A stretch of 60,946 nucleotides of DNA, taken from contig KZ538586.1 in assembly GCA_000934665.2 (NCBI GenBank), positions 1 to 60,946 of the forward strand, written 5' to 3'. Source of the DNA: Catajapyx aquilonaris. Its lineage: Eukaryota. The notes beneath the pieces were generated by a model. It did no database searches. It was not told the DNA's origin and saw only the letters and a list, made by a program, of their open reading frames with translations. How positions within the stretch are numbered: the stretch's first letter is position 1; each line of letters starts with the position of its first letter. A program made the position numbers and the translations under genes. Shown in pieces: positions 732 through 53,799 of the stretch.

Positions 732-1712
732 TACATGTACTGAATGAAAGCAAAAATAAAAAGGCCCGTGCAACAGCTAGAGGTCCGCACTTCCTAAAAT
801 AAATTCTACTGTAAATCCCGGTACAAATTATACACACCGAATGTTTTCATTGCTATCGAATCCGATTCAGGTGGGGAAAATATTTTGAAACCAATAATAC
901 TGTACCGTATATTGACTTTGCAGTACGACCTTTTAAAAACGCAAGAAGGATTTAGGGCAAACAATAACAAGAGCCTGTGCCTGGCGTGGGCTGACAAAAG
1001 GGCAGGTAAAATGACTCATCCATGGGAATGAGCATGCAAGCACATGAAGTGAACCTACTGTCTCCTGTTGCATCGGATGAGGCGGCTGCTTTCTTTCTGC
1101 ACTCTTCTGACTACTAAGCTCCTGATTATCGACCGTCATCTTCAGTTTCTAAGGAGTCGCTGCTATGAGTTCGTTATCCAAGCTGACTCCAGATTTCCTT
1201 CCAGTGCGACACCATTCTACCCCCACTTTCATGCACAAACTAGTAATTATTATTGATGTATGCGCTATGACTATGTTTCGGACTGTCAGCTCCCGCCGTT
1301 TGTTGTTGCCAACAGCTGGGTTGCAGCTATACCTCGGTACTTTTCCAGCACGAATGAGGGTGAAATGAAACACGCGATTGCCTCTCCAAATCCATTTGGC
1401 GCGTTGAATTATTTCATCCGAGGGGGTCTACTAGTGAAAAGAAAGGCTATTGTTAGAAATGCATTGATGAATAATTTTTGAAGGGCAATATGAGAGTAAA
1501 TGATCTGAACTGAGGTAGCCTGTGAGGTATCTCCCTACGGTACCTGTCGAGGCATACTAATCAGTAATTTTTGAAATGTGACAGAGTCGATTTTGCATCA
1601 TGGAAATTGCGTTGCAGAACTAGTTCAGTGGTGTGGTGGAGGAACGTGCCATGCCGAGGGTTTTCAAGCTAAACGGAACTTTTTCGATTTATGAAAGGTC
1701 AACTCTATAATA

Positions 1713-2149
1713 CAGGGTGTAACTGAACTCAGTGCACAGACGTATATGACTGCCTTCCTAGGCACCCGAGGATCGATTTAGGTAGAGGAGTCATTATGTC
1801 TGGGCCGCCGCATTACCGAGATAATTGCCCCTAAACATGTAGTAAAAAATATCCTGTCGGTTAGGCCACCCATCGAACTCTCCCCCAGTCACAAGGAGCG
1901 ATTAGGCAAAAACGTTGTGTTGTGGTTTGTAATTTCAATTTGTTCTGAATGTCGCTGCTAATTTTGAAGAGCACTGGCACTTTCACTGCTATTTACAAAT
2001 CCCTCTTTAGCCAAATCGCTAACTATCAGGTGGGTCGATTATCTCGGTAATGCGGCGGCCCAGACATAATGACACTCTACCTAAATCGATCCTCTGGTGC
2101 CTAGGAAGGCAGTCATATACGTCTGTGCACTGAGTTCAGTTACACCCTG
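1713..2149. mobile_element. 437-bp Tc1/mariner-type MITE with ~115-bp TIRs
   Basis: TA|CAGGGTGTAACTGAACTCAGTGCACAGACG ... CGTCTGTGCACTGAGTTCAGTTACACCCTG|TA; near-perfect arms. Confidence 0.92.
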
Positions 2150-3795
2150 TATAGAAGGAAGACTCAAAATATAACCTTGATTCCCAACCTTTACGCAATG
2201 CCTGGCTTACATATTATGCATGAAAAATTAATGAATAACATTTTGACAAACAGTGTGCATATGACATTAAATACCCTTCTCCCGAATCACTGACTCAATA
2301 CAAATCAGTGATTGCCTCATCAGATTTTTTAAAAACCAACTGAAATGCACTACCAACCTCACATACGGTGATAAGGTGAATGTGAGAAAATATATCAGAA
2401 AATTGAAGTGGTGACTGACATTTTTAGAAGTGCAACTGGCAGGGTTGCCAACATGACTGTTAATGAGATTGATATTATTCGTCTAAGGTCCATCAAGCAT
2501 CTTGCCTCTTCTGGCCTCTCGAGGTGCGTTTACATCAGGGGGAAGACGTGGTTGAGATAAAGGCTAACTGCTATCGAGAAGCGAAACCGCATGTATACAC
2601 CACGAACTCTCTTCGGACGAGTTGCCCCGGGCGAGCTCCCTACTTTGCCTCAAAAACGCAGACGAAGTTCGTCGACTTGTTGGCACCCTTGCCACGGTGG
2701 ACATGATAATCTACCGGGAATTTAATAAATCGGCGATTAATAAACGCTCCATATGAAAAACACTCTATACCAGGAATAGTTCACTCCTTGCCTGGCCGTA
2801 AGCAACATGTAAACTGGTTCTCTGAGATAGGCAGGCATACTGAATAGTTACCTGGAACACATATACTTATGGATGGTGACAGACCCAGGCCTCTCCTCCG
2901 TATAGTGTCAGGCATTCTTCCAAAGTGTTTTGAGCGGGAGGAGCGAGAAAGAGCGCACTTATTAGCCCATACATGGAATCACAGACACTAAAAATAGCTA
3001 TTTTGAATATATGCCAACATTTATAGGAGACGAAATTTAACCTTTTCAGCCCCAAGGATCTAGAATCTAGGCGATGAGAAATCGACCACGCAGTATTGCC
3101 ATAGCATTTTAGAGTTAACTTACATGTAGTTACATCGCATATACGCAGTGAGGACTCAAAATGTATCCTTAATGCTTATCCATGTCAATCATACCTCGTC
3201 AACCTCTATAATGCTTGTCCACACGCAATGCCGGCTTGTTTTGGAAATCGTGCATAATTTGTCGACTCGCATTAGGCAGCCCACGGTCCAACCCCATGTC
3301 CATAAATGCTTCCGCCTCTGCATATAATCCTGCGATCGTCATACGTTAGCTGGGGATATTGTCATTTAGAAATTGTTCCAAACTTTTTTATTTGAACAAA
3401 ATTTATTTAAATTATAAGGGTGAATTTTCCGCAGATAATATAAATGTAAAAAAACCTTGAGAGTAAATTTTGTAACTTCAATATATTTTAGATCATTATG
3501 TTATGCACGTAATAATTATTGTTGCCTTACTAATCTTGACTGGAACCACCTCCACAGTATTTTTCGACACCGGACAAATTAACCACTTCACTCCACAATT
3601 TTTAAGATCTTTAATTATTAAGTTGCAATATTAACTGTTTGTCTTAATATTTTTGACTGATCCCAACAGTAAATTAAGCACTGAATATAAGCTCTAGTGT
3701 TACATTACACGGGGTAATCAAAGAATACCAAAGGAAAGGGAATTCAGTGAATGATTGTTGTATAATCACTGGACGTTCTGCTCTATGATGTTAAT

Positions 3796-3834
<39 letters not shown>

Positions 3835-3955
3835 CGACATTTCCCTATGAGGGGTAGTCAGCGATGAAGGGAGACGCAAGCTAACCCAACATATGAACTA
3901 ATAAAACTCATGAGAATAAACCTAAAAACAACCCGTCATACCCCCCACCCCTGCC
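3796..3955 (-). mobile_element. 5'-truncated non-LTR retroposon 3' end with (GTT)n tail
   Basis: (AAC)n at 3796-3834; 10-bp direct repeat TGATGTTAAT at 3786-3795 and 3956-3965. Confidence 0.7.
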
Positions 3956-4003
3956 TGATGTTAATGATACTAAGATATATTTATTGATATAAGGTAGACC
4001 GGG

Positions 4004-4053
4004 GCCCCACTAAGAGGGCTCCTCCCTAAAATGGGGTGCATAAAATAAAAAAA

Positions 4054-4116
<63 letters not shown>

Positions 4117-4117
4117 A
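4004..4117 (+). mobile_element. Very short retroposed 3' end with (TAAA)n tail, inserted at the left TIR of the adjacent MITE
   Basis: 15-bp direct repeat ATAAGGTAGACCGGG at 3989-4003 and 4118-4132 around ~45 bp unique sequence plus a (TAAA)n run. Confidence 0.75.
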
Positions 4118-4121
4118 ATAA

Positions 4122-4832
4122 GGTAGACCGGGCAAGTGGAAACCTGTTAATTTCTCGCTTATAGTATGTTATTTATAAGCCTTCCATTATAGTTAAAAAA
4201 AAACATTGCACTCACAACCAAACTAACTCTTCTTACCCTCCCAAATTTTGAAAATGTTTGGATTTTCTAATTCTGCTTGACCTATAGTGTTGTGAAAACA
4301 TCACATCTGCTGCTAATTTTCACGCTAGCAGGTTCAAAATACAAAGCCAAAAGACCGAAATTCCGAAGCCACAACACCTGCATCCGATCGCGGGTGGTGG
4401 GTCGCCGGTCCCAGCTGGCCGTTCGCGGGTCGCGGATATCAGTGATTTGATAATGATTGATTAAACTTGGTTCATATATTGCTACACAAAATCGATTTCG
4501 AAGCGCGTGAGGTCATATCCTACTTGCTCGCGCCACCCTAGAGCGCGCTACAGTCGCGGCGACCGGGGACCTGCGACCCGCGACCGGCTGCTAGGTGTTG
4601 TGGCTTCGGGTTCTCGCATTTAGCTTGTATTTTGACGTGGAAATTAGCGGCGGAGGTGATGTTTGCACCACAAGTATCGGCGGAAACATGAGCTACTTTT
4701 GCAGTCAGTGGCTGCACCAGAGTCGTATACATTGTTTCCCAACAATTGGCTCTCAGGATATTATTTCCAGTATGATTTTTCACCCGGTGCGGTGTTCCAA
4801 TTACCACAGATTTTCACTTACCCCGGTTTACC
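4122..4832. mobile_element. Old, degenerate palindromic DNA-transposon derivative (superfamily uncertain)
   Basis: Left GGTAGACCGGGCAAGTGGAAACCTGT vs reverse complement of right end GGTAAACCGGGGTAAGTGAAAATCTGT; internal inverted match ~4295-4412 vs ~4565-4675. Confidence 0.7.
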
Positions 4833-4980
4833 TACTTAATTCAGATTTATGTTGTTGCTGCCAATAAATTACTGATTTCCAAAAGTAAGTGCATTTTGGG
4901 CATTAAACGCTTTTAAAATATTCCCCAAAATCAACATGGTTATACACGATGACACAGTGACGTAGCCACCCCCACACCAC

Positions 4981-5085
4981 NNNNNNNNNNNNNNNNNNNN
5001 NNNNNNNNNNNNNNNNNNNNNNNNNNNNNNNNNNNNNNNNNNNNNNNNNNNNNNNNNNNNNNNNNNNNNNNNNNNNNNNNNNNNN
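4981..5085. other. Assembly gap (N run)
   Basis: 105 consecutive N. Confidence 1.
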
Positions 5086-6503
5086 CCCCGAGAAACCTAG
5101 GCTATTATCCAAAAGTCGACGAAAATTACTAATTTATGATTTTTGGAAAAATTGATGCCAATTTTATCATCTACACACCCATTGAAATCTCCCACATTGA
5201 CCTAAGCTCGTGTGACCTTGAACCCCCCAAAATTTACCTATACCCGTTTTGCTACCTCCGGAAAAATTTTGTCACGCGAGAGGGAGTGACCAAGGTGCGA
5301 AAGTATAATTATGCTTGGCTGCGAGAGTGCTCGGCATAGACGTACAAACTGTTGTGCCTTGATCTACAGGGTGTTTGGGCCGTTGGGTGTTTATGACCGT
5401 GTAGTTATGTTAATTTTTGGTCAAAAATTATTTTCACAATTTTTCTCCAGCCATCAGAAATGCGGTAATACTATATGATAGCTTGTAATGATGGGACAGA
5501 TGCTAACATCGGGGGAATAGCTTGCACTATCATGAAGAATTATTGTGACAATCAAAGTCAAGCATTCACCTCAACAAAACATTTACTGTATTCTTATTCT
5601 AATTATAGCAATAATTGCAATGATAATTCAGAAAGCAATTTTATATTTGTTATAACAATAACATTGTTATAACAAAATAATATGAAATTGTTTTCTGAAT
5701 CATGATATCTCAACTACTCCAGGGAATTGTTTCTGGTGCACTTTGGAAATCAATACTCGAAGATCGTAAAGTTACCTAAGAAATTTATTTATGTCATTTA
5801 TTAAATGCGTCAACTATTCGCGGTTCAAGCAAAACTGTTGATCAATATCAGGTTAGGCTCGCAAACAAGCTAACACCTGTTGTTAACAAGTGCGCTTGAG
5901 ACTTGGGATTTGGCGGATTTCCACAATCTCGTACACATTCACACAATCTCTCAGACAATTATTTGTTGATGTCATAAGCAATGTTTACGCACATGTGTAT
6001 AGGCTACTCTAGCATCTCTAACATATGAGCTCAACCTGTAGGTCATGTGGTGAAGACTGCGAGATGTGTGTACATATTATAACAGTGTCTTTCTGGTATT
6101 TACAAATGCCCCGACTACGACAAAATTAATATTATGATACCCGTTTCGATTCTCGTCAATATTTTATACCCGTTCACCGTACATACACGCCCATGCACCT
6201 ACGCACATCCACGCACACCACGAATATCTGTAGATTTGAGTGCTGCCACTTTGAGTCCACTCCGACGTCTGAATCGCCATTGAATTTCCCCGCCAAAACG
6301 AGCTTAATTTGAGACACTACCACCAAAGCCCTGCATGCCATCCACGTGGGTAAGTTTCACAGTTGTTCCCAGCTGTTGGCAACCATGGTCGGCCATTGTA
6401 GGACGACAGCCAAAAAAAGAATTTGGAAATGCCTGACTGGCAGTCTGAAACAACTGAGTCCTGCCGCTCTCTCCAGGACTTTGCTGGCAGTATTGAGAAG
6501 GGC

Positions 6504-22342: not shown

Positions 22343-22606
22343 TTTGTTTTAGTTGGGGAAGCCCAGGCAACTAAGGCCATGAGGCTCAGGGGAGGGATGG
22401 GGCCAAGGATAGGGAAGAAAGGAATCGGCTGTGGCCTATTATATGGACGCTACCCCGGAATTATCCTGGGGGGACCGTGGAAAACCACAGAAAATCACGT
22501 AAACGTAACGGTCCAAGCAACGGTCAGAATCGCCGGCACCGGTATCGAACCCAGGACCTCCCGATTAGCAGTCGGACGCCTTAACCACTACACCAACCTG
22601 CATCGG
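22343..22606 (-). mobile_element. Full-length tRNA-derived SINE (family S2)
   Basis: Minus-strand A box TGGTGTAGTGG, B box GGTTCGATACC; TSD TGTTAACGTATCCAG (22328-22342) / TGTTATCGTATCCAG (22607-22621). Confidence 0.9.
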
Positions 22607-31782: not shown

Positions 31783-31932
31783 CTATCGGGTTCAAATACT
31801 TTTGGCCACTTTATCCTGGTCTTGAAGCAACCCTTCACGCACGCACACACACATCAATCCTTAACGTGGGGTCTGTGCAAAGGGTTGCTTCAAGACCAGG
31901 ATAGAGTGGCCAAAAGTATTTGAACCCGATAG
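31783..31932. mobile_element. 150-bp TA-flanked MITE (family M2, copy 1)
   Basis: TA|CTATCGGGTTCAAATACTTTTGGCCAC ... GTGGCCAAAAGTATTTGAACCCGATAG|TA. Confidence 0.92.
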
Positions 31933-32805: not shown

Positions 32806-32949
32806 CTATCGGTCTCAATTAGTTTCGGTCACTTTATCCTGGTCTTGAAGCAACCCTTCGCACAGGCCCCACTGTGTGAGGAGGTATGTGTGTGTGAAGG
32901 GTTGCTTCAAGACCAGCATAAAGTGGCCGAAACTAATTGAGTCCGATAA
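32806..32949. mobile_element. Family M2, copy 2 (spacer in opposite orientation)
   Basis: Shared core CACTTTATCCTGGTCTTGAAGCAACCCTTC and its inverted copy; TA flanks. Confidence 0.9.
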
Positions 32950-34659: not shown

Positions 34660-35138
34660 CGCTTAGCTGGTATATCAGTCCAACAAGAATTGTCGCAGCG
34701 GCAGCGCACGAACTACATTCTACGAGCACAGGTATACGAGAGAGTGTAGTTCGTGCGCTGCCGCTGGCGACAATTCTTGTTGGACACCAGGTACGCTAAC
34801 CCCGGATGTAGAGTCTGAAAACCCGAATGCAGAGCCCTGTATCAAGTCGCATTCTGGCGGACGACTCTGAACCGTTCAGAACCTACCTACATTGTCAACT
34901 TCCAATCAGCTCCCGTTTGCAGATGCAACCATCAGCCACCAATTGGAACGGTCTAAAAGGCATTCGCGTGGCTGATGTTTGGATCTGCGAACGGGAGCTG
35001 ATTGGAAATTGACAATGTAGGTAGGTTCTGAACGGTTCAGAGACACCCCCCCCCCCCCCCCCCCCCNTGCGATTTGATACATGGCTCTACATCCAGGTAT
35101 TCGGACTCTACATCCGGGGTTAGCGGACCAGCTAAGCG
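34660..35138. mobile_element. Two fused palindromic elements (~34663-34790 and ~34790-35133) sharing TAGCTGGT-type ends
   Basis: Hairpin 1 GTCCAACAAGAATTGTCGC.../...GCGACAATTCTTGTTGGAC; hairpin 2 CGCTAACCCCGGATGTAGAGTC.../...GACTCTACATCCGGGGTTAGCG; outer inverted repeat CGCTTAGCTGGT/ACCAGCTAAGCG. Confidence 0.8.
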
Positions 35139-35249
35139 CACGGCCTACCCCGTATGGCCAGATAGGAAGTTGCGAGAGGCGTAAGACACACCACTATGAA
35201 TAATAGGCACCGGACAGCTCTCATAATGTAAATGTATATTCTCCAGATA

Positions 35250-37230
35250 GTCCAGGTGCTAAGGGACAAATTTGACCCAAACTTTGCATTTTGTGACAAA
35301 AGTATGAAACTCGGTACACTTGTCCTTTGGACACTTCTGATCATATCTGGACGTGGAGCCACGATGACCCACCCCGATGGTGGTCCATTTCGCAGGGTTT
35401 CCATAACTACCAGATGCAGCATCCTTTTAGGACCTTGTATTGGGTGACAAAAACATGAAACTCGCCACAATTGGTCTTTGGACACTTCTGAACATGTCTG
35501 GATGTGGGGCCATGATGACTGACCCCGCTGTGGGTCACTTTCAGGGTTGCCAGATCTAACGGACCAAACATACATCTCTGCAAGGATCATGTGAATTGGG
35601 AGCTTGCATTCGGTGATAAAAACGTGAAACGCGGTACGGTAGTTCTTCGAACACATCTCAACATTATTATGTGGACGTGGGGTCACGGTGGGTGACCCCT
35701 GGTGGCCTTGCCAGGGGTCACTATCGCGGAGTTGCCAAATCGAACATGTGTTGCACACCTTTACATGAATAAGGGCCTTGCATTCGGTGATAAAACACTG
35801 CTAAAACATGAAACTCGCCCCAATTGGTCTTCGGACACTACTGAACATGTCTGTAAGTGAGGTCACTATGGATGACCCCACTGGGGGTCACTCGCAGGGT
35901 TGCCAGATCTAATGGGCTCTCTAAGTAAACTATGTGAATAGGGAGCTTGCATTCGGTGACAAAGACGTGAAACTAGGTACAATATAGTTTTTTGCACACT
36001 TCCGAACATATCTGGACGTGGGGACACGATGACCCACCCCGAGGGAGGGCACTATCGCAGGGTTGCCATATCTAACAGAATGTGCAACATGTGTTTATTT
36101 TTGAATAATGAGCTTGCATTCGGTGACAAAGCCATAAAACTTGGTACGTTAGTTATTTGCACACTTCCGAACATATCTGGACGTGGAGCCACGATGACCC
36201 ACAGAATGCACGCTCATTATTTAAATATAAACGCATGTTGCACAGTCTGTCAGATATGGCAACGCCGCTATAGTGCCCTCCATCGGGGTGGGTCATCGTG
36301 GCTCCAAGTCCAGATATGTTCGGAAGTGTCCAAAGAACAATTCTACCACGTTTCACGTCTTTGTCACCAAATGCAAGCTCCCTATAAAAATATAAACGCA
36401 TGCTGCACAGTCTGTGAGATTTGGCAACACCATGATAGTGCCCTCCCCCGGGGTGGGTCATCTTGTCCCCACGTCCAGATATGTTCGGAAGTGGGCAAAG
36501 AACTATATTGTACCGAGTTTCACGTCTTTGTCACCGAATGCAATCTCCCTATTCACATAGTTTACTTAGAGAGCCCATTAGATCTGGCAACCCTGCGAGT
36601 GACCCCCAGTGGAGTCATCCATAGTGACCTCACTTACAGACATGTTCAGTAGTGTCCGAAGACCAATTGGGGCGAGTTTCATGTTTTAGCAGTGTTTTAT
36701 CACCGAATGCAAGGCCCTTATTCATGTAAAGGTGTGCAACACATGTTCGATTTGGCAACTCCGCGATAGTGACCCCTGGCAAGGCCACCAGGGGTCACCC
36801 ACCGTGACCCCACGTCCACATAATAATGTTGAGATGTGTTCGAAGAACTACCGTACCGCGTTTCACGTTTTTATCACCGAATGCAAGCTCCCAATTCACA
36901 TGATCCTTGCAGAGATGTATGTTTGGTCCGTTAGATCTGGCAACCCTGCAAGTGACCCACAGCGGGGTCAGTCATCATGGCCCCACATCCAGACATGTTC
37001 AGAAGTGTCCAAAGACCAATTGTGGCGAGTTTCATGTTTTTGTCACCCAATACAAGGTCCTAAAAGGATGCTGCATCTGGTAGTTATGGAAACCCTGCGA
37101 AATGGACCACCACCGGGGTGGGTCATCGTGGCTCCACGTCCAGATATGATCAGAAGTGTCCAAAGGACAAGTGTACCGAGTTTCATACTTTTGTCACAAA
37201 ATGCAGAGTTCAACCCCTTAGCACCCGGAC
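35250..37230. mobile_element. ~1.98-kb foldback element whose long TIRs are built of ~150-175-bp tandem subrepeats
   Basis: Ends TA|GTCCAGGTGCTAAGGG ... CCCTTAGCACCCGGAC|TA; subrepeat marker TGCATTCGGTGA(C/T)AAA recurs at ~35286, 35436, 35605, 35779, 35948, 36115 and is mirrored in the right arm; centre ~36205. Confidence 0.92.
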
Positions 37231-38894
37231 TAAGACAAGTATAACACGTCTGCTCTCCCAGACAGCACCTACTCCTCTCCACTACTCTCCTTCCAAACAC
37301 TCTCAAACATACATTGATCCCATAGTACCTGTTACGAAGACATAATCCTCCTGACAACAATAGACAGTATTGCCAACATGACTCGAACCACTACAATAAT
37401 GTAAACATCATCTCACAAGTACCCGCAAGTTTTGTGGAAAACTCTGATAAGTTATATTTATTTGTCGAATTGGCGAGCAGGCTGTACTATTGATTTTGTC
37501 GGAACACGCAAATCATGTTCGAAACTACCAGTCAACCTTGGAGTGCACTTATGCGAAGATTCAGTTTCTCTTTAGCGGCTCTAATTTCAAGATAAACCAG
37601 CAGCCTCGTGGTCCAGAGGTAGGGATTTGTGATTAACGGCAAGCGATGCGTATAATGAACGTGATTGAGAACTTTGTTTACATCTTACCACATCCAATAA
37701 AACAATCTGCGGAGTTTGGTGTGAGGTGGGGAGAGAAAGGGAGGGGAGCCAGGACATGAAAACTCCTCCACTCACTTTAATTACATGCGCAGGAACTTTA
37801 ATATTGCTCTAAAACGCATTACAGTTAATACTCAAAGGATACCGGGAATGATTCCATAATGTTCCGCCTACAAGTCGGATGCCGTGGTTGGTGAATATGA
37901 TGTGCAACTTGAGTAAAAAACCGTAACACTAAAAAACATACCAAGTATAGTGTGGACCTACAAAACTTTATTTACAAACCTACACCAAATGCAATAAAAT
38001 ATAGAGAAAATGCCAGTACCGTACCTCCCCTGACGTGGAATAAGATAGGAGAAAGATCAGATTTATTATTATACGCGATTATACGCGAAAGCAGATTTTA
38101 AAAATATGGGCCGCGTAACAGATAGTTGTGGCAACAGGCATGAAAATACACTGGAGATGGTCGCCTGACGCACGATCGAGCACGATCTCAGTCAGTTTCA
38201 TATAACCGGAATAAAAATGTTGCTGCATGTGGAAGTCTTCCAAGAAAAGTCGATTCTTATCCTTCAGATTGCACAGGATACCCTATACAAAGAAGGATAC
38301 CCATTTCCGTCCCTGGGTCTGTACTATGACCAGATTCCTCATTCTGCACGTCATAAAAGAGCCGGAGATTTTTTCTTGGTAGTACAGGCCTACTACTTGT
38401 ATCATACAAGCCCGACCGATACTACTCCTTTGTGTTGTTTGTTACTAACGTGTCACTGTGTTGTTCATTTCTTTCTAACCGTGAGGAACTACAGCAGCTC
38501 TGCATTGCTGTGATACGTAACATGTCCATTGCACAAGGGATGCTATCATTGACACATTTATGGTAATGCAGTGTAAGGCTTCCGCGGAAAAATTTAGACT
38601 GCTGAAAGAAAAACCTTTGCTGCGAAAGGAAATGGTGTGGGACCAAACTATAGGCAAGCAGTAGGCTACACTATGTGCAGAAAGAAGATTATTGCTGTCT
38701 TCGCTGCAATGTCCAGAAATTCTACTGAGCTCCCTTGAACACAGTTAGATCCCTTTTATATCCCAAAAAGCCTGGAAAGTTGCCGGTTGTACTTATGCAT
38801 GGTGCAAAATAAAATTCGTTTCCCTGCGAGCTATACCATTCACATATTAAGCCTAAGGATTGAAATGTGTCTTTATTGATATAGATGGCGTGAC

Positions 38895-48452: not shown

Positions 48453-48602
48453 CTATGGGGCTCAAATTGTTTTGGCCACTTTATCCTGGTCTTGAGGCAA
48501 CCCTTCACACACACACACACACACACCTGCTCACCGTGGAACCTGTGCGAAGGGTTGCTTCAAGACCAGGATAAAGTGGGCAAAAGAATTTGAGCCACAT
48601 AG
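48453..48602. mobile_element. Family M2, copy 3
   Basis: TA|CTATGGGGCTCAAATT ... AATTTGAGCCACATAG|TA with (CA)n in the spacer; its right TA abuts a further CAGGGTG end. Confidence 0.9.
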
Positions 48603-51827: not shown

Positions 51828-52548
51828 AATTATTGACTGTCTATTTCTTTAAAATACCCAGACACATCTTTGCACTAGTCTATAGTTGTTTCGCCGTACA
51901 AGTTTTGCATCAACCCGTATTGTTTCCTGGCTGTTTTAGCGCAGAGATACCACGAAAACACCGGGAACACTTAGTAGAAATTGTATTATTAGCGTCGTCT
52001 CTTATTGGACGTAACCTAGCATATAGGTTGCAAAGTTGCAGCCTTTTTAGCCTTCATTTCTTGCCTTGGTAGGTGGTCCTTTATACGACGTGTACGATTC
52101 AATTGCCTATACATGTTCGTTTGTCATAAAAAGCCTACGCCAATATATTTACTCCTTACTGATATAATCTTACACATCACCTCAAAGGCTTACCAAGGCT
52201 TGTTTAGGCCGATGAATCTACACTGTTCATATGACGGCAGTGAATCAGTGATACAGCAGTTTGTTGCACCTTTTAGGACATGTTATAATAATTTCCTCGA
52301 GTCAAAGTGCATTCACTAGACTAGAGCGATCTTAAGGATATACAGTGGCTAGCAATTAACATATACACATACTGCATTCATGAAGATAACCAGCTACTTT
52401 TCGCTTGTGCAGGAAATTGCTTCCCTGTTAATCGATGGGACAGGCCCTTCCACCTTCTATAGAAATATTTAAAATGGCTTACCCCTACAAGGAGAAATAG
52501 GGTGTGTGTTAACCCTCTCCGGCTCTCCCAATACAAAACAACTTTCAT

Positions 52549-52837
52549 TGGTTGGTTGGTTTGGAAGGGTTACCCAGCTTATATGGCTCTGTCTGAGTCG
52601 AGCCTTGGCAGCCGGGGGTAGGAGAGGAAGGCGTGGGATTGCAAGGTGGGGGAGAAGGGTGGGGGAGAGGAGGGCTGGACCAGGCTGGACTGCAATGCCG
52701 GGTCCAACCCAGGGACGGGGGTGGGATATTCTCCCAAGCACCCCGTCCGACCAAGAAATACGAGTTGGTCCGAGAGGACCACTCGATGGGCGCCTTGATC
52801 TTAGCCAGAGGCCGAGAAGCGTATGATGGAAATACAT
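52549..52837 (-). mobile_element. Retroposon with U2 snRNA-derived head (candidate SINEU-like SINE)
   Basis: 15-bp TSD CAAAACAACTTTCAT (52534-52548, 52838-52852); (AACC)n tail; U2-like head at 52672-52824; CT-rich linker and unrelated ~65-nt 3' region. Confidence 0.85.
52672..52824 (-). pseudogene. U2: Internally deleted, diverged U2 snRNA derivative
   Basis: Minus strand CGCTTCTCGGCCTCTGGCTAAGATCAAG (U2 stem I); GAGTGGTCCTCTCGGACCAACTC (IIb-like); ATTTCTTGG (Sm-like); GGACGGGGTG...CACCCCCGTCC (III); GGGTTGGACCCGGC-ATTGCAGTCCA-GCCTGGTCCAGCCC (IV); GTAGTA absent. Confidence 0.9.
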
Positions 52838-53102
52838 CAAAACAACTTTCATATCTCAACACCTCTGATTCTGTGTGGTAAAGTGCCAAACAGTTGCGGT
52901 ATTTTTGACAAAGAAAAACGTTCAATTGGGTACACTTTGTACGCGAGTAAAAATGTGCGTTTCTTTTCTTGCATACATACGTATCATACATATGTAATTA
53001 TTTTGGTTATTATCATAATATATTTCTCCTGTTGATAGAAATGTGATCAAAGTAAAATGTTAAGGACATATTTGGGCTCACGTAAATATGTTTTTGTTAT
53101 GG

Positions 53103-53247
53103 GCTGCCCGAGGTCAGAGAAAAGGTCTGGTGTATCTGAGAGAGTCGTGAGTGACTATAAACCGTGGATGCCCCCCCTTGGGAACCTTCCCTCCCCCCAA
53201 AACGAGCCGAACGGCTCGAGCACGGGGTAACAATTTAAAAAAAAAAA
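53103..53247 (+). mobile_element. 5'-truncated poly(A)-tailed retroposon
   Basis: 15-bp TSD ATGTTTTTGTTATGG (53088-53102, 53248-53262); 3' hairpin CGAGCCGAACGGCTCG; A-tail. Confidence 0.8.
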
Positions 53248-53799
53248 ATGTTTTTGTTATGGCCTGGCACTGTAACACTAGTATTGAAACCCAAAGTAGT
53301 GCGTGCGATACTTGGGCGTGACTGCGCTGTAGTTGCACAGTTACAAACACTATCAAACTTGCAATTACAACATTGTCTTCCCTCAGATAAACCACCTAAA
53401 TACGTCTAGTTAGATTTCAAAAAAATGAATGCATTATCTATGAATTTTAATATTTCCCTGAAAGGGGCGCGAAGTAATTTTTTACATCGCACCTATTATC
53501 TTTGTATCATCACAGATCCGGTTGCCCCGCAGTAGCAGTTAAAATAACAGCTACTTTATAATCGCTGTAATTTGAATAATTGTCCGAGGCAGTCATTGAC
53601 GTAACATTGTCGACGCGAGTGTGAAGAAGTGGTGTTACTGGTAGGTATATGTATCATGCGAATGAAAAATAAATAAAAAAGTTTTATCTGGGTTCTTTGC
53701 GAACGTCAAAAAATTACTCGATAGACATAAGGAGGTTAAGGCAGTGAGAAAGAAAGAGATGAAGATAAAAAAGACAACGAAAAAAAGGGGGGAAACGAA

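Follow-up and report, generated by a model that had tools for sequence, protein, structure and literature searches.

A probable SINE-like repeat family with a rearranged U2 snRNA head and an (AACC)n-type tail in Catajapyx aquilonaris

Background

The closest described relatives of the element reported here are the SINEU families, which have heads derived from U1 or U2 snRNA and end in poly(A) tails. They were described from crocodilians, as the original prediction for our locus had noted, and in the parts of the source article drawn on here (Kojima 2015, PMC4494074) none is detected outside that group. In the same parts, SINEU are mobilised by Tx1-Mar LINEs and show a target preference for one Mariner family, Mariner-N4; the oligo-T tracts inside most of the families argue against transcription by Pol III, and their transcription is left unexplained. 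Three families bear on our locus: SINEU-1 numbers about 7,700 copies, its host genomes being about 2.5 Gb in size, most copies of SINEU-2 are 5'-truncated, and SINEU-3 consists of a U2 from which about 50 bp are deleted internally (the 5' 32 bp followed by a later 83 bp) and an unrelated 3' end (Kojima 2015, PMC4494074). Later papers that cite SINEU treat it as crocodilian in the passages retrieved, apart from two mentions: a sentence of background text places SINEU together with SINE28 under 'avian, crocodilian and mammalian genomes', and the portion retrieved of a Daphnia magna methylation preprint lists 'SINE_U' among its repeat classes, apparently as an automatic label. Our literature search, which covered the full text of articles as distinct from Repbase, Dfam and the supplements of genome papers, returned no description of a U1- or U2-headed SINE from outside crocodilians.

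In the strict sense, a SINE is transcribed by Pol III from an internal promoter; the promoter of U2 is external and is used by Pol II. [quoted passage not shown] The eel pair UnaL2/UnaSINE1 is of this type, its stem-loop and short tandem repeats being recognised by the reverse transcriptase of the partner. Human U6/L1 and U2/Alu retrocopies are chimeric, a product of template switching by the LINE reverse transcriptase from a LINE or SINE end to an snRNA.

Here we analyse a unit with a U2-like head in a window of 60,946 nucleotides, that is, the whole stretch of DNA examined, from Catajapyx aquilonaris. We consider that it is probably one retroposed copy of a multi-copy, non-autonomous SINE-like family whose body comes from U2 snRNA.

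Methods

Contig evidence was taken from four DNA runs (X1 to X4) of one sample and one study, from the same organism as the window, and these are treated as one data set; the sequenced sample is possibly identical to the source of the window assembly. Logan contigs were aligned to positions 52000-53400 at a likeness of at least 80%, and the runs contain 69-77% of the words of this region. The run search listed five runs, of which these four contain the region, and no RNA run containing it was among them. Details of individual contigs rest on the 32 listed of about 970 aligned pieces and the 24 listed of about 250 loose ends. In total, the contigs of each run amount to about 256 million letters, with a depth of about 16-35x, and point to a genome of about 250 Mb, a size that speaks against a crocodilian.

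Structure of the element

The unit comprises 289 nt on the minus strand (52837..52549) and lies between two direct repeats of 15 nt that are 100% identical and, in the repeat search, have a spacing of 304. By our own arithmetic about 3 × 10-4 such pairs are expected by chance in 800 bp, and a chance origin of the repeats was rejected. We read them as a target site duplication (TSD), and the perfect TSD together with a contig depth that is biased towards the 3' end indicates retroposition. The parts of the unit are given in Table 1. Between the upstream TSD and the first nucleotide of U2 there are 13 extra nucleotides, which may be filler, a 5' extension or part of a longer imperfect TSD; the last of these is suggested by the fact that four of the 13 are the same as the four nucleotides that follow the downstream TSD.

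Table 1. Parts of the U2-headed element, in element orientation, and summed contig depth in bins along it (runs X1/X2/X3/X4; multiples are of the single-copy flank depth)
Feature	Positions	Strand	Basis	Depth X1/X2/X3/X4	Times flank
TSD, copy upstream of the element	52838..52852	.	100% identical to 52534-52548		
Extra 13 nt between upstream TSD and U2 nt 1	52825..52837	-	read from sequence		
U2 nt 1-31, 5' end and stem-loop I	52794..52824	-	Rfam alignment, posterior probability mostly marked with an asterisk		
Non-U2 segment, 33 nt, ~10-bp hairpin	52761..52793	-	model gaps or low posterior probability; MFE and centroid folds		
Sm-site-like stretch, T5 run of U2 model broken by C	52751..52760	-	Rfam alignment		
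U2 stem-loops III and IV and 3' end	52665..52750	-	high posterior probability in Rfam alignment; fold		
C/T-rich spacer, 53 nt	52612..52664	-	sequence; no RNA family match		
3' segment, ~47 nt	52611..52565	-	read from sequence		
Nested hairpin of 3' segment	52574..52615	-	fold; deepest part of the element		
(AACC)n-type simple-repeat end, three and a half units	52549..52564	-	sequence		
TSD, downstream copy	52534..52548	.	identical to 52838-52852		
Bin, U2 5' end	52799-52845			298/424/446/171	11-19
Bin	52752-52798			1157/2273/2761/937	48-101
Bin, stem-loop III	52705-52751			8324/10461/12239/5555	345-465
Bin, stem-loop IV	52658-52704			7487/7988/8848/5323	250-355
Bin, spacer	52611-52657			7310/4268/8196/3245	190-300
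Bin, tail	52564-52610			14142/12595/15674/5233	335-590

The head matches the U2 family (RF00004) from 52823 to 52665 on the minus strand, over model positions 1-192, with 53.3 bits against a gathering score of 46 (E = 9.1 × 10-8, cmscan). U2 is the sole family to attain its gathering score in the entire window, where a search at E ≤ 1 returned 19 rows of which U2 alone reached its threshold. At E ≤ 10 on positions 52500-52990 there were four matches, the three non-U2 ones far under their own thresholds, and no RNA family matched the hairpin insert, the spacer or the tail. The original prediction, made from the sequence alone, had placed here a minus-strand unit of about 290 bp inside a perfect 15-bp TSD, with a CT-rich linker, a 3' segment and an (AACC)n tail, all of which we recover; the U2 identity it gave to the head holds under the covariance model, but the head is 159-160 nt long and not about 153.

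In the Rfam alignment the head is near-perfect across its first ~31 nt (the 5' end and stem-loop I) and good again over the Sm site and stem-loops III and IV on to the 3' end of U2. The roughly 60 model positions that follow position 31 are filled by gaps or by letters of low probability; we take these to be the branch-point-recognition sequence and stem-loop II. The missing middle is replaced by 33 nt (52793..52761), which the MFE and centroid structures both show as a hairpin of about 10 bp. The fold of the entire head has -76.3 kcal/mol (z = -5.45), and none of 200 shuffles does as well. Because the branch-point and stem-loop II region is missing, the head is a U2 with its middle replaced and not a working U2.

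A U2-derived master copy as founder of the family predicts that the majority of copies will be closer to U2 than the window copy, and the contigs bear on this prediction. The window copy has about 5 differences from the majority in 190 nt (52564-52751). At 52688, 52682 and 52679 the majority letters differ from those of the window in nearly all of the contig depth, and with these three letters the apical stem of stem-loop IV has 6 bp in place of 3, the form that it takes in the Rfam model, while the MFE of the head becomes -77.4 rather than -76.3 kcal/mol. Since the majority letters restore the stem-loop IV of the model, the family majority is a better U2, the U2 part was already present in the ancestor of the family, and the window copy is a decayed version of the majority. 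In the hairpin segment the family majority has substitutions and an indel relative to the window, judging from the contigs that are clipped at 52765.

Repetition of the element

The left flank (52000-52516) behaves as single-copy sequence: it is covered by one contig of 921 nt with zero differences, at depths of 24.1, 22.5, 35.4 and 15.6 in X1 to X4. Against this flank, the tail, the spacer and the 3' half of U2 stand at about 190-590 times the depth in all four runs, where summed contig depth is not a copy number, by the tool's own caution, and the evidence is one of depth and not of counted loci. Position 52581 is covered by at least 17-26 distinct contigs per run. Contigs that carry variants at 52632, 52648 and 52679 reach 19-64 nt in both directions and therefore bridge the joints between U2 and spacer and between spacer and tail, with summed depths of about 1160-5100. 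At the other end of the tail, 7-11 contigs per run leave the element at 52548, among the matches listed, and their continuations agree with one another at only 0.43-0.48; these unlike letters indicate different insertion sites.

Within the window the element is alone, as the original prediction had noted: blastn at word size 7 matched nothing but the element and chance stretches of up to 27 nt, and there is no further (AACC)n array of three or more units. Its proposal that this single visible copy belongs to a repeated family is supported by the depth, by the two bridged joints and by the unlike 3' flanks, and the one-off template-switch chimera that it had kept as an alternative does not fit joints covered by several high-depth contigs. 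Two stretches of the tail, of 24 nt (with one ambiguity letter) and 25 nt, had no exact match in metagenome contigs or in prokaryote-genome and viral contigs, collections that are mostly microbial, so that these zeros say little.

The 5' end and alternative explanations

The U2 5' end is seen at 11-19 times the flank depth, and by our own estimate about two thirds of the depth in that bin (52799-52845) comes from the neighbouring repeat that starts at 52838. The low depth implies that most copies are 5'-truncated, diverged or without the U2 5' end. The full head is present in a small minority of the alignable contigs, so full-length copies like that of the window are either few or more than 20% different.

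An alternative that we regard as unlikely, though with a modest share of the probability, is that the abundant family is a shorter element starting near the Sm-like site or stem-loop III and made of the 3' half of U2, the spacer and the tail, and that the U2 5' end and the hairpin mark a minor subfamily formed by later 5' addition through a template switch. The successive fall in depth from 345-465 (52705-52751) to 48-101 (52752-52798) and 11-19 times the flank (52799-52845) would fit such a core. So would a contig that in three runs, among the matches listed, is common to the window to the right of 52761 and differs to the left of it, which hints at subfamilies. Recurrent 5' additions of U1 and U2 pieces have a precedent in the subfamilies of SINEU-1, as these are presented in the sections used of Kojima 2015 (PMC4494074). 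However, among the matches listed 3-6 contigs per run are clipped at 52765 in three of the four runs (X2 has no row), and over a further stretch of at most 30 nt they closely resemble the hairpin segment, from which they differ by an indel, the continuations agreeing at 0.98 in X1 and X3 and at 0.72 in X4. The majority sequence thus enters the replaced middle and does not end at the Sm-like site, and the drop in depth is in part a failure to align. Nor would a template switch onto real U2 snRNA yield a U2 that is internally rearranged.

In a further, very unlikely reading, an autonomous LINE has captured U2-like sequence in its 3' UTR, the repeat would be the end of this LINE, and the window copy would be a 5'-truncated copy of it. 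A 3' bias in depth is what 5'-truncated LINE copies would produce, and some crocodilian Tx1 LINEs carry U1 or U2 sequence, though at their 5' ends in the parts drawn on of the SINEU description (PMC4494074). Against such a LINE end stands a contig of X3, among the matches listed, that is like the window up to 52826 and then unlike it for 121 nt. Position 52826 is U2 nucleotide 1 within 3 nt, so this contig is a second copy with its 5' end at the start of U2, and for two copies to lose their likeness to each other at that point would be rare under random truncation. The 148 ORFs of the window also gave no Pfam match.

A one-off chimeric retrocopy, with a template switch of a LINE reverse transcriptase from the 3' end of a LINE or SINE onto U2 RNA, is highly improbable. 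A small RNA 5' of a LINE-type 3' end within a TSD is the arrangement of known chimeras, as cited in the part used of Kojima 2015 (PMC4494074), and the window holds a single copy. In their degree of repetition the 3' half of U2 and the spacer match about half of the tail, and contigs of high depth cross both joints; neither a unique chimera nor chimeras with independent joints can explain repeated parts with shared, bridged joints, and this alternative was rejected on these grounds. The internal rearrangement of the U2 part and the better stem-loop IV of the family majority also count against it.

A functional variant U2 snRNA gene has next to no probability and was rejected, since the branch-point region is missing, with the model positions of stem-loop II, from a head that scores above the Rfam gathering threshold and retains stem-loops I, III and IV, and since the sequence is flanked by a TSD, runs into a spacer and a repeat tail and has decayed relative to the family majority.

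Tail and mobilisation

We return to the reading of the unit as a retroposed copy of a multi-copy, U2-derived SINE-like family. Its last 67 nt contain the nested hairpin (52615..52574), then an unpaired stretch and then the AACC repeats, with an MFE of -18.4 kcal/mol (z = -2.28), a value that 5 of 200 shuffles equal or better. The length of the AACC repeat varies among copies, with insertions after 52561/52562 in 2-7 contigs per run among those listed. The hairpin is a candidate for the site that the reverse transcriptase of a partner LINE would recognise. A stem-loop with short repeats resembles the 3' signal of the stringent pairs, and from this resemblance we infer that a LINE with the same 3' end would be the mobiliser. 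A LINE sharing the tail was not found within the window. Pfam gave no match in 13 ORFs of at least 120 aa and 148 stop-to-stop ORFs of at least 75 aa, a scan that left out the 235 window ORFs of 55-74 aa, and no reverse-transcriptase or endonuclease ORF was seen among the 148.

A LINE reverse transcriptase with specificity for the 3' hairpin and the short repeats would take up the RNA of a master copy, in a 'stringent' LINE/SINE relationship with the U2-derived family. Target-primed reverse transcription into a nicked target would then leave the 15-bp TSD and often a 5' truncation. The founder of the family may itself have originated as a template-switch chimeric retrocopy.

For the transcription of the master copy, the oligo-T tracts of U2 are relevant. 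Both are broken in the window copy (UUUU in the loop of stem-loop I and UUUUU in the Sm site, by the Rfam alignment), and Pol III could therefore read through the window copy, unlike crocodilian SINEU. The 289-nt unit has no T run of four or more, as have 2965 of 5000 shuffles, so that this is not significant alone; it also has no A run of four or more. The best matches to Pol III promoter boxes are weak, with 3 mismatches in 11 for box A and 2 in 11 for box B. The fullest form of the hypothesis, an independently evolved U2-headed SINE in a small-genome organism far from crocodilians, which Pol III reads through from within or which carries a new internal promoter, and which is borne by a stringent LINE that recognises a hairpin and (AACC)n, is in our view rather improbable.

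Sequence around the element

The element inserted into the margin of another, unclassified repeat, about 120 bp long (52838-52958), where its upstream TSD now lies; the depth of this repeat is about 600-1400, with at least 14-17 contigs per run covering 52867. Copies of the repeat continue to the left past 52838, in 4-8 contigs per run among those listed, into sequence unlike the element, and the last 5-9 letters of these continuations resemble 52525-52533. They can be read as paralogous sites without the insert and as such lend slight backing to the boundaries of the insertion.

A second short retroposon lies nearby on the plus strand (53088-53262). It has 145 nt (53103-53247) and a poly(A) end, is flanked by perfect 15-bp direct repeats (53088-53102 and 53248-53262), and has a depth of about 2900-6400 against 16-35 for the flank; among the matches listed, 1-2 contigs per run lack it and connect 53087 directly with 53247. 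Its likeness to the U2 element is at the level of chance (local score 17 against 15.9 +/- 2.1 for shuffles). In both insertions the 15-bp TSD starts with ATG and is preceded by AT in element orientation, and this common context, with n = 2, may point to the same endonuclease.

Elsewhere in the window, two near-identical inverted copies of about 550-660 bp (35135-35800 on the minus strand and 36690-37241 on the plus strand) flank a 165-bp tandem repeat of 2.1 copies (36205-36552). The longest ORFs of the window lie in these copies; they are not protein-like and have no Pfam match, and the structure may be a foldback-type or long-TIR element. ARAGORN places a tRNA-Ser (anticodon gct) at 22530-22602 on the minus strand; in the scan of the window this tRNA stays under the Rfam gathering score. 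Hairpins form in three stretches of about 100 nt (31805-31910, 32828-32927 and 48475-48580), which match the same unrelated miRNA models on both strands, at 27.6-38 bits against thresholds of 57-79, and look like palindromic MITE-like repeats rather than miRNA genes. By the Pfam scan of 148 ORFs, the 61-kb window seems free of recognisable coding sequence, transposon proteins included.

Comparison with described systems

In its head, in its repetition as a family and in its mode of retroposition the element is like SINEU, by comparison with the published description rather than by consensus alignment. The points that follow are limited to the parts of that description used here. The nearest family is SINEU-3. 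Both are multi-copy, both have a head from a gene with an external Pol II promoter, and both consist of a U2 without its middle joined to an unrelated 3' end, our element keeping 31 nt and about 100 nt of U2. In SINEU-3, however, the U2 has a simple deletion, whereas here the gap is filled by a hairpin of 33 non-U2 nt, and a C/T spacer of 53 nt follows the head. Of the SINEU-3 insertions 90% are in one Mariner family, whereas the low agreement of the 3' flanks of our element (0.43-0.48) speaks against one preferred target. The SINEU tail is poly(A), in place of which we find a hairpin and (AACC)n, and SINEU families contain oligo-T, in contrast to the window copy with its lack of T runs of four or more.

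SINEU-1 is similar in that a U2/U1-derived head stands on a shared, non-snRNA 3' half without a known LINE partner, with 5'-truncated copies and with subfamilies that differ at the 5' end; it differs in its poly(A) tail and in heads that arose by serial U1 and U2 additions. The human U6/L1 and U2/Alu chimeras, which are cited in the discussion of the same article (Kojima 2015, PMC4494074), share with our element an snRNA on the 5' side, a LINE or SINE 3' end, a TSD and the use of a LINE reverse transcriptase. They are independent single events with differing joints, whereas the joints here are shared and of high depth.

The 3' end of our element is like that of a different system, since in the eel UnaL2/UnaSINE1 pair a 3' stem-loop is likewise followed by a few short tandem repeats. 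That pair has a tRNA head with an internal Pol III promoter, in contrast to the U2-derived head found here.

Conclusions

The element is probably a copy of a multi-copy, snRNA-headed SINE-like family with a different type of tail, new with respect to published descriptions as distinct from Repbase and Dfam entries, and with a genome of about 250 Mb its origin is likely to have been independent of the crocodilian SINEU. If it represents a second independent family with another tail type, then the capture of U2 by LINE machinery would be recurrent, not peculiar to crocodilians, and independent of Tx1 or poly(A) elements. The family is fairly young, as the few differences between the window copy and the majority show, and this recommends it over the old crocodilian families for studying how a head with an external Pol II promoter continues to be transcribed. 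If the rather improbable reading with Pol III transcription and a stringent LINE were true, the question of how snRNA-headed SINEs are transcribed would become directly testable.
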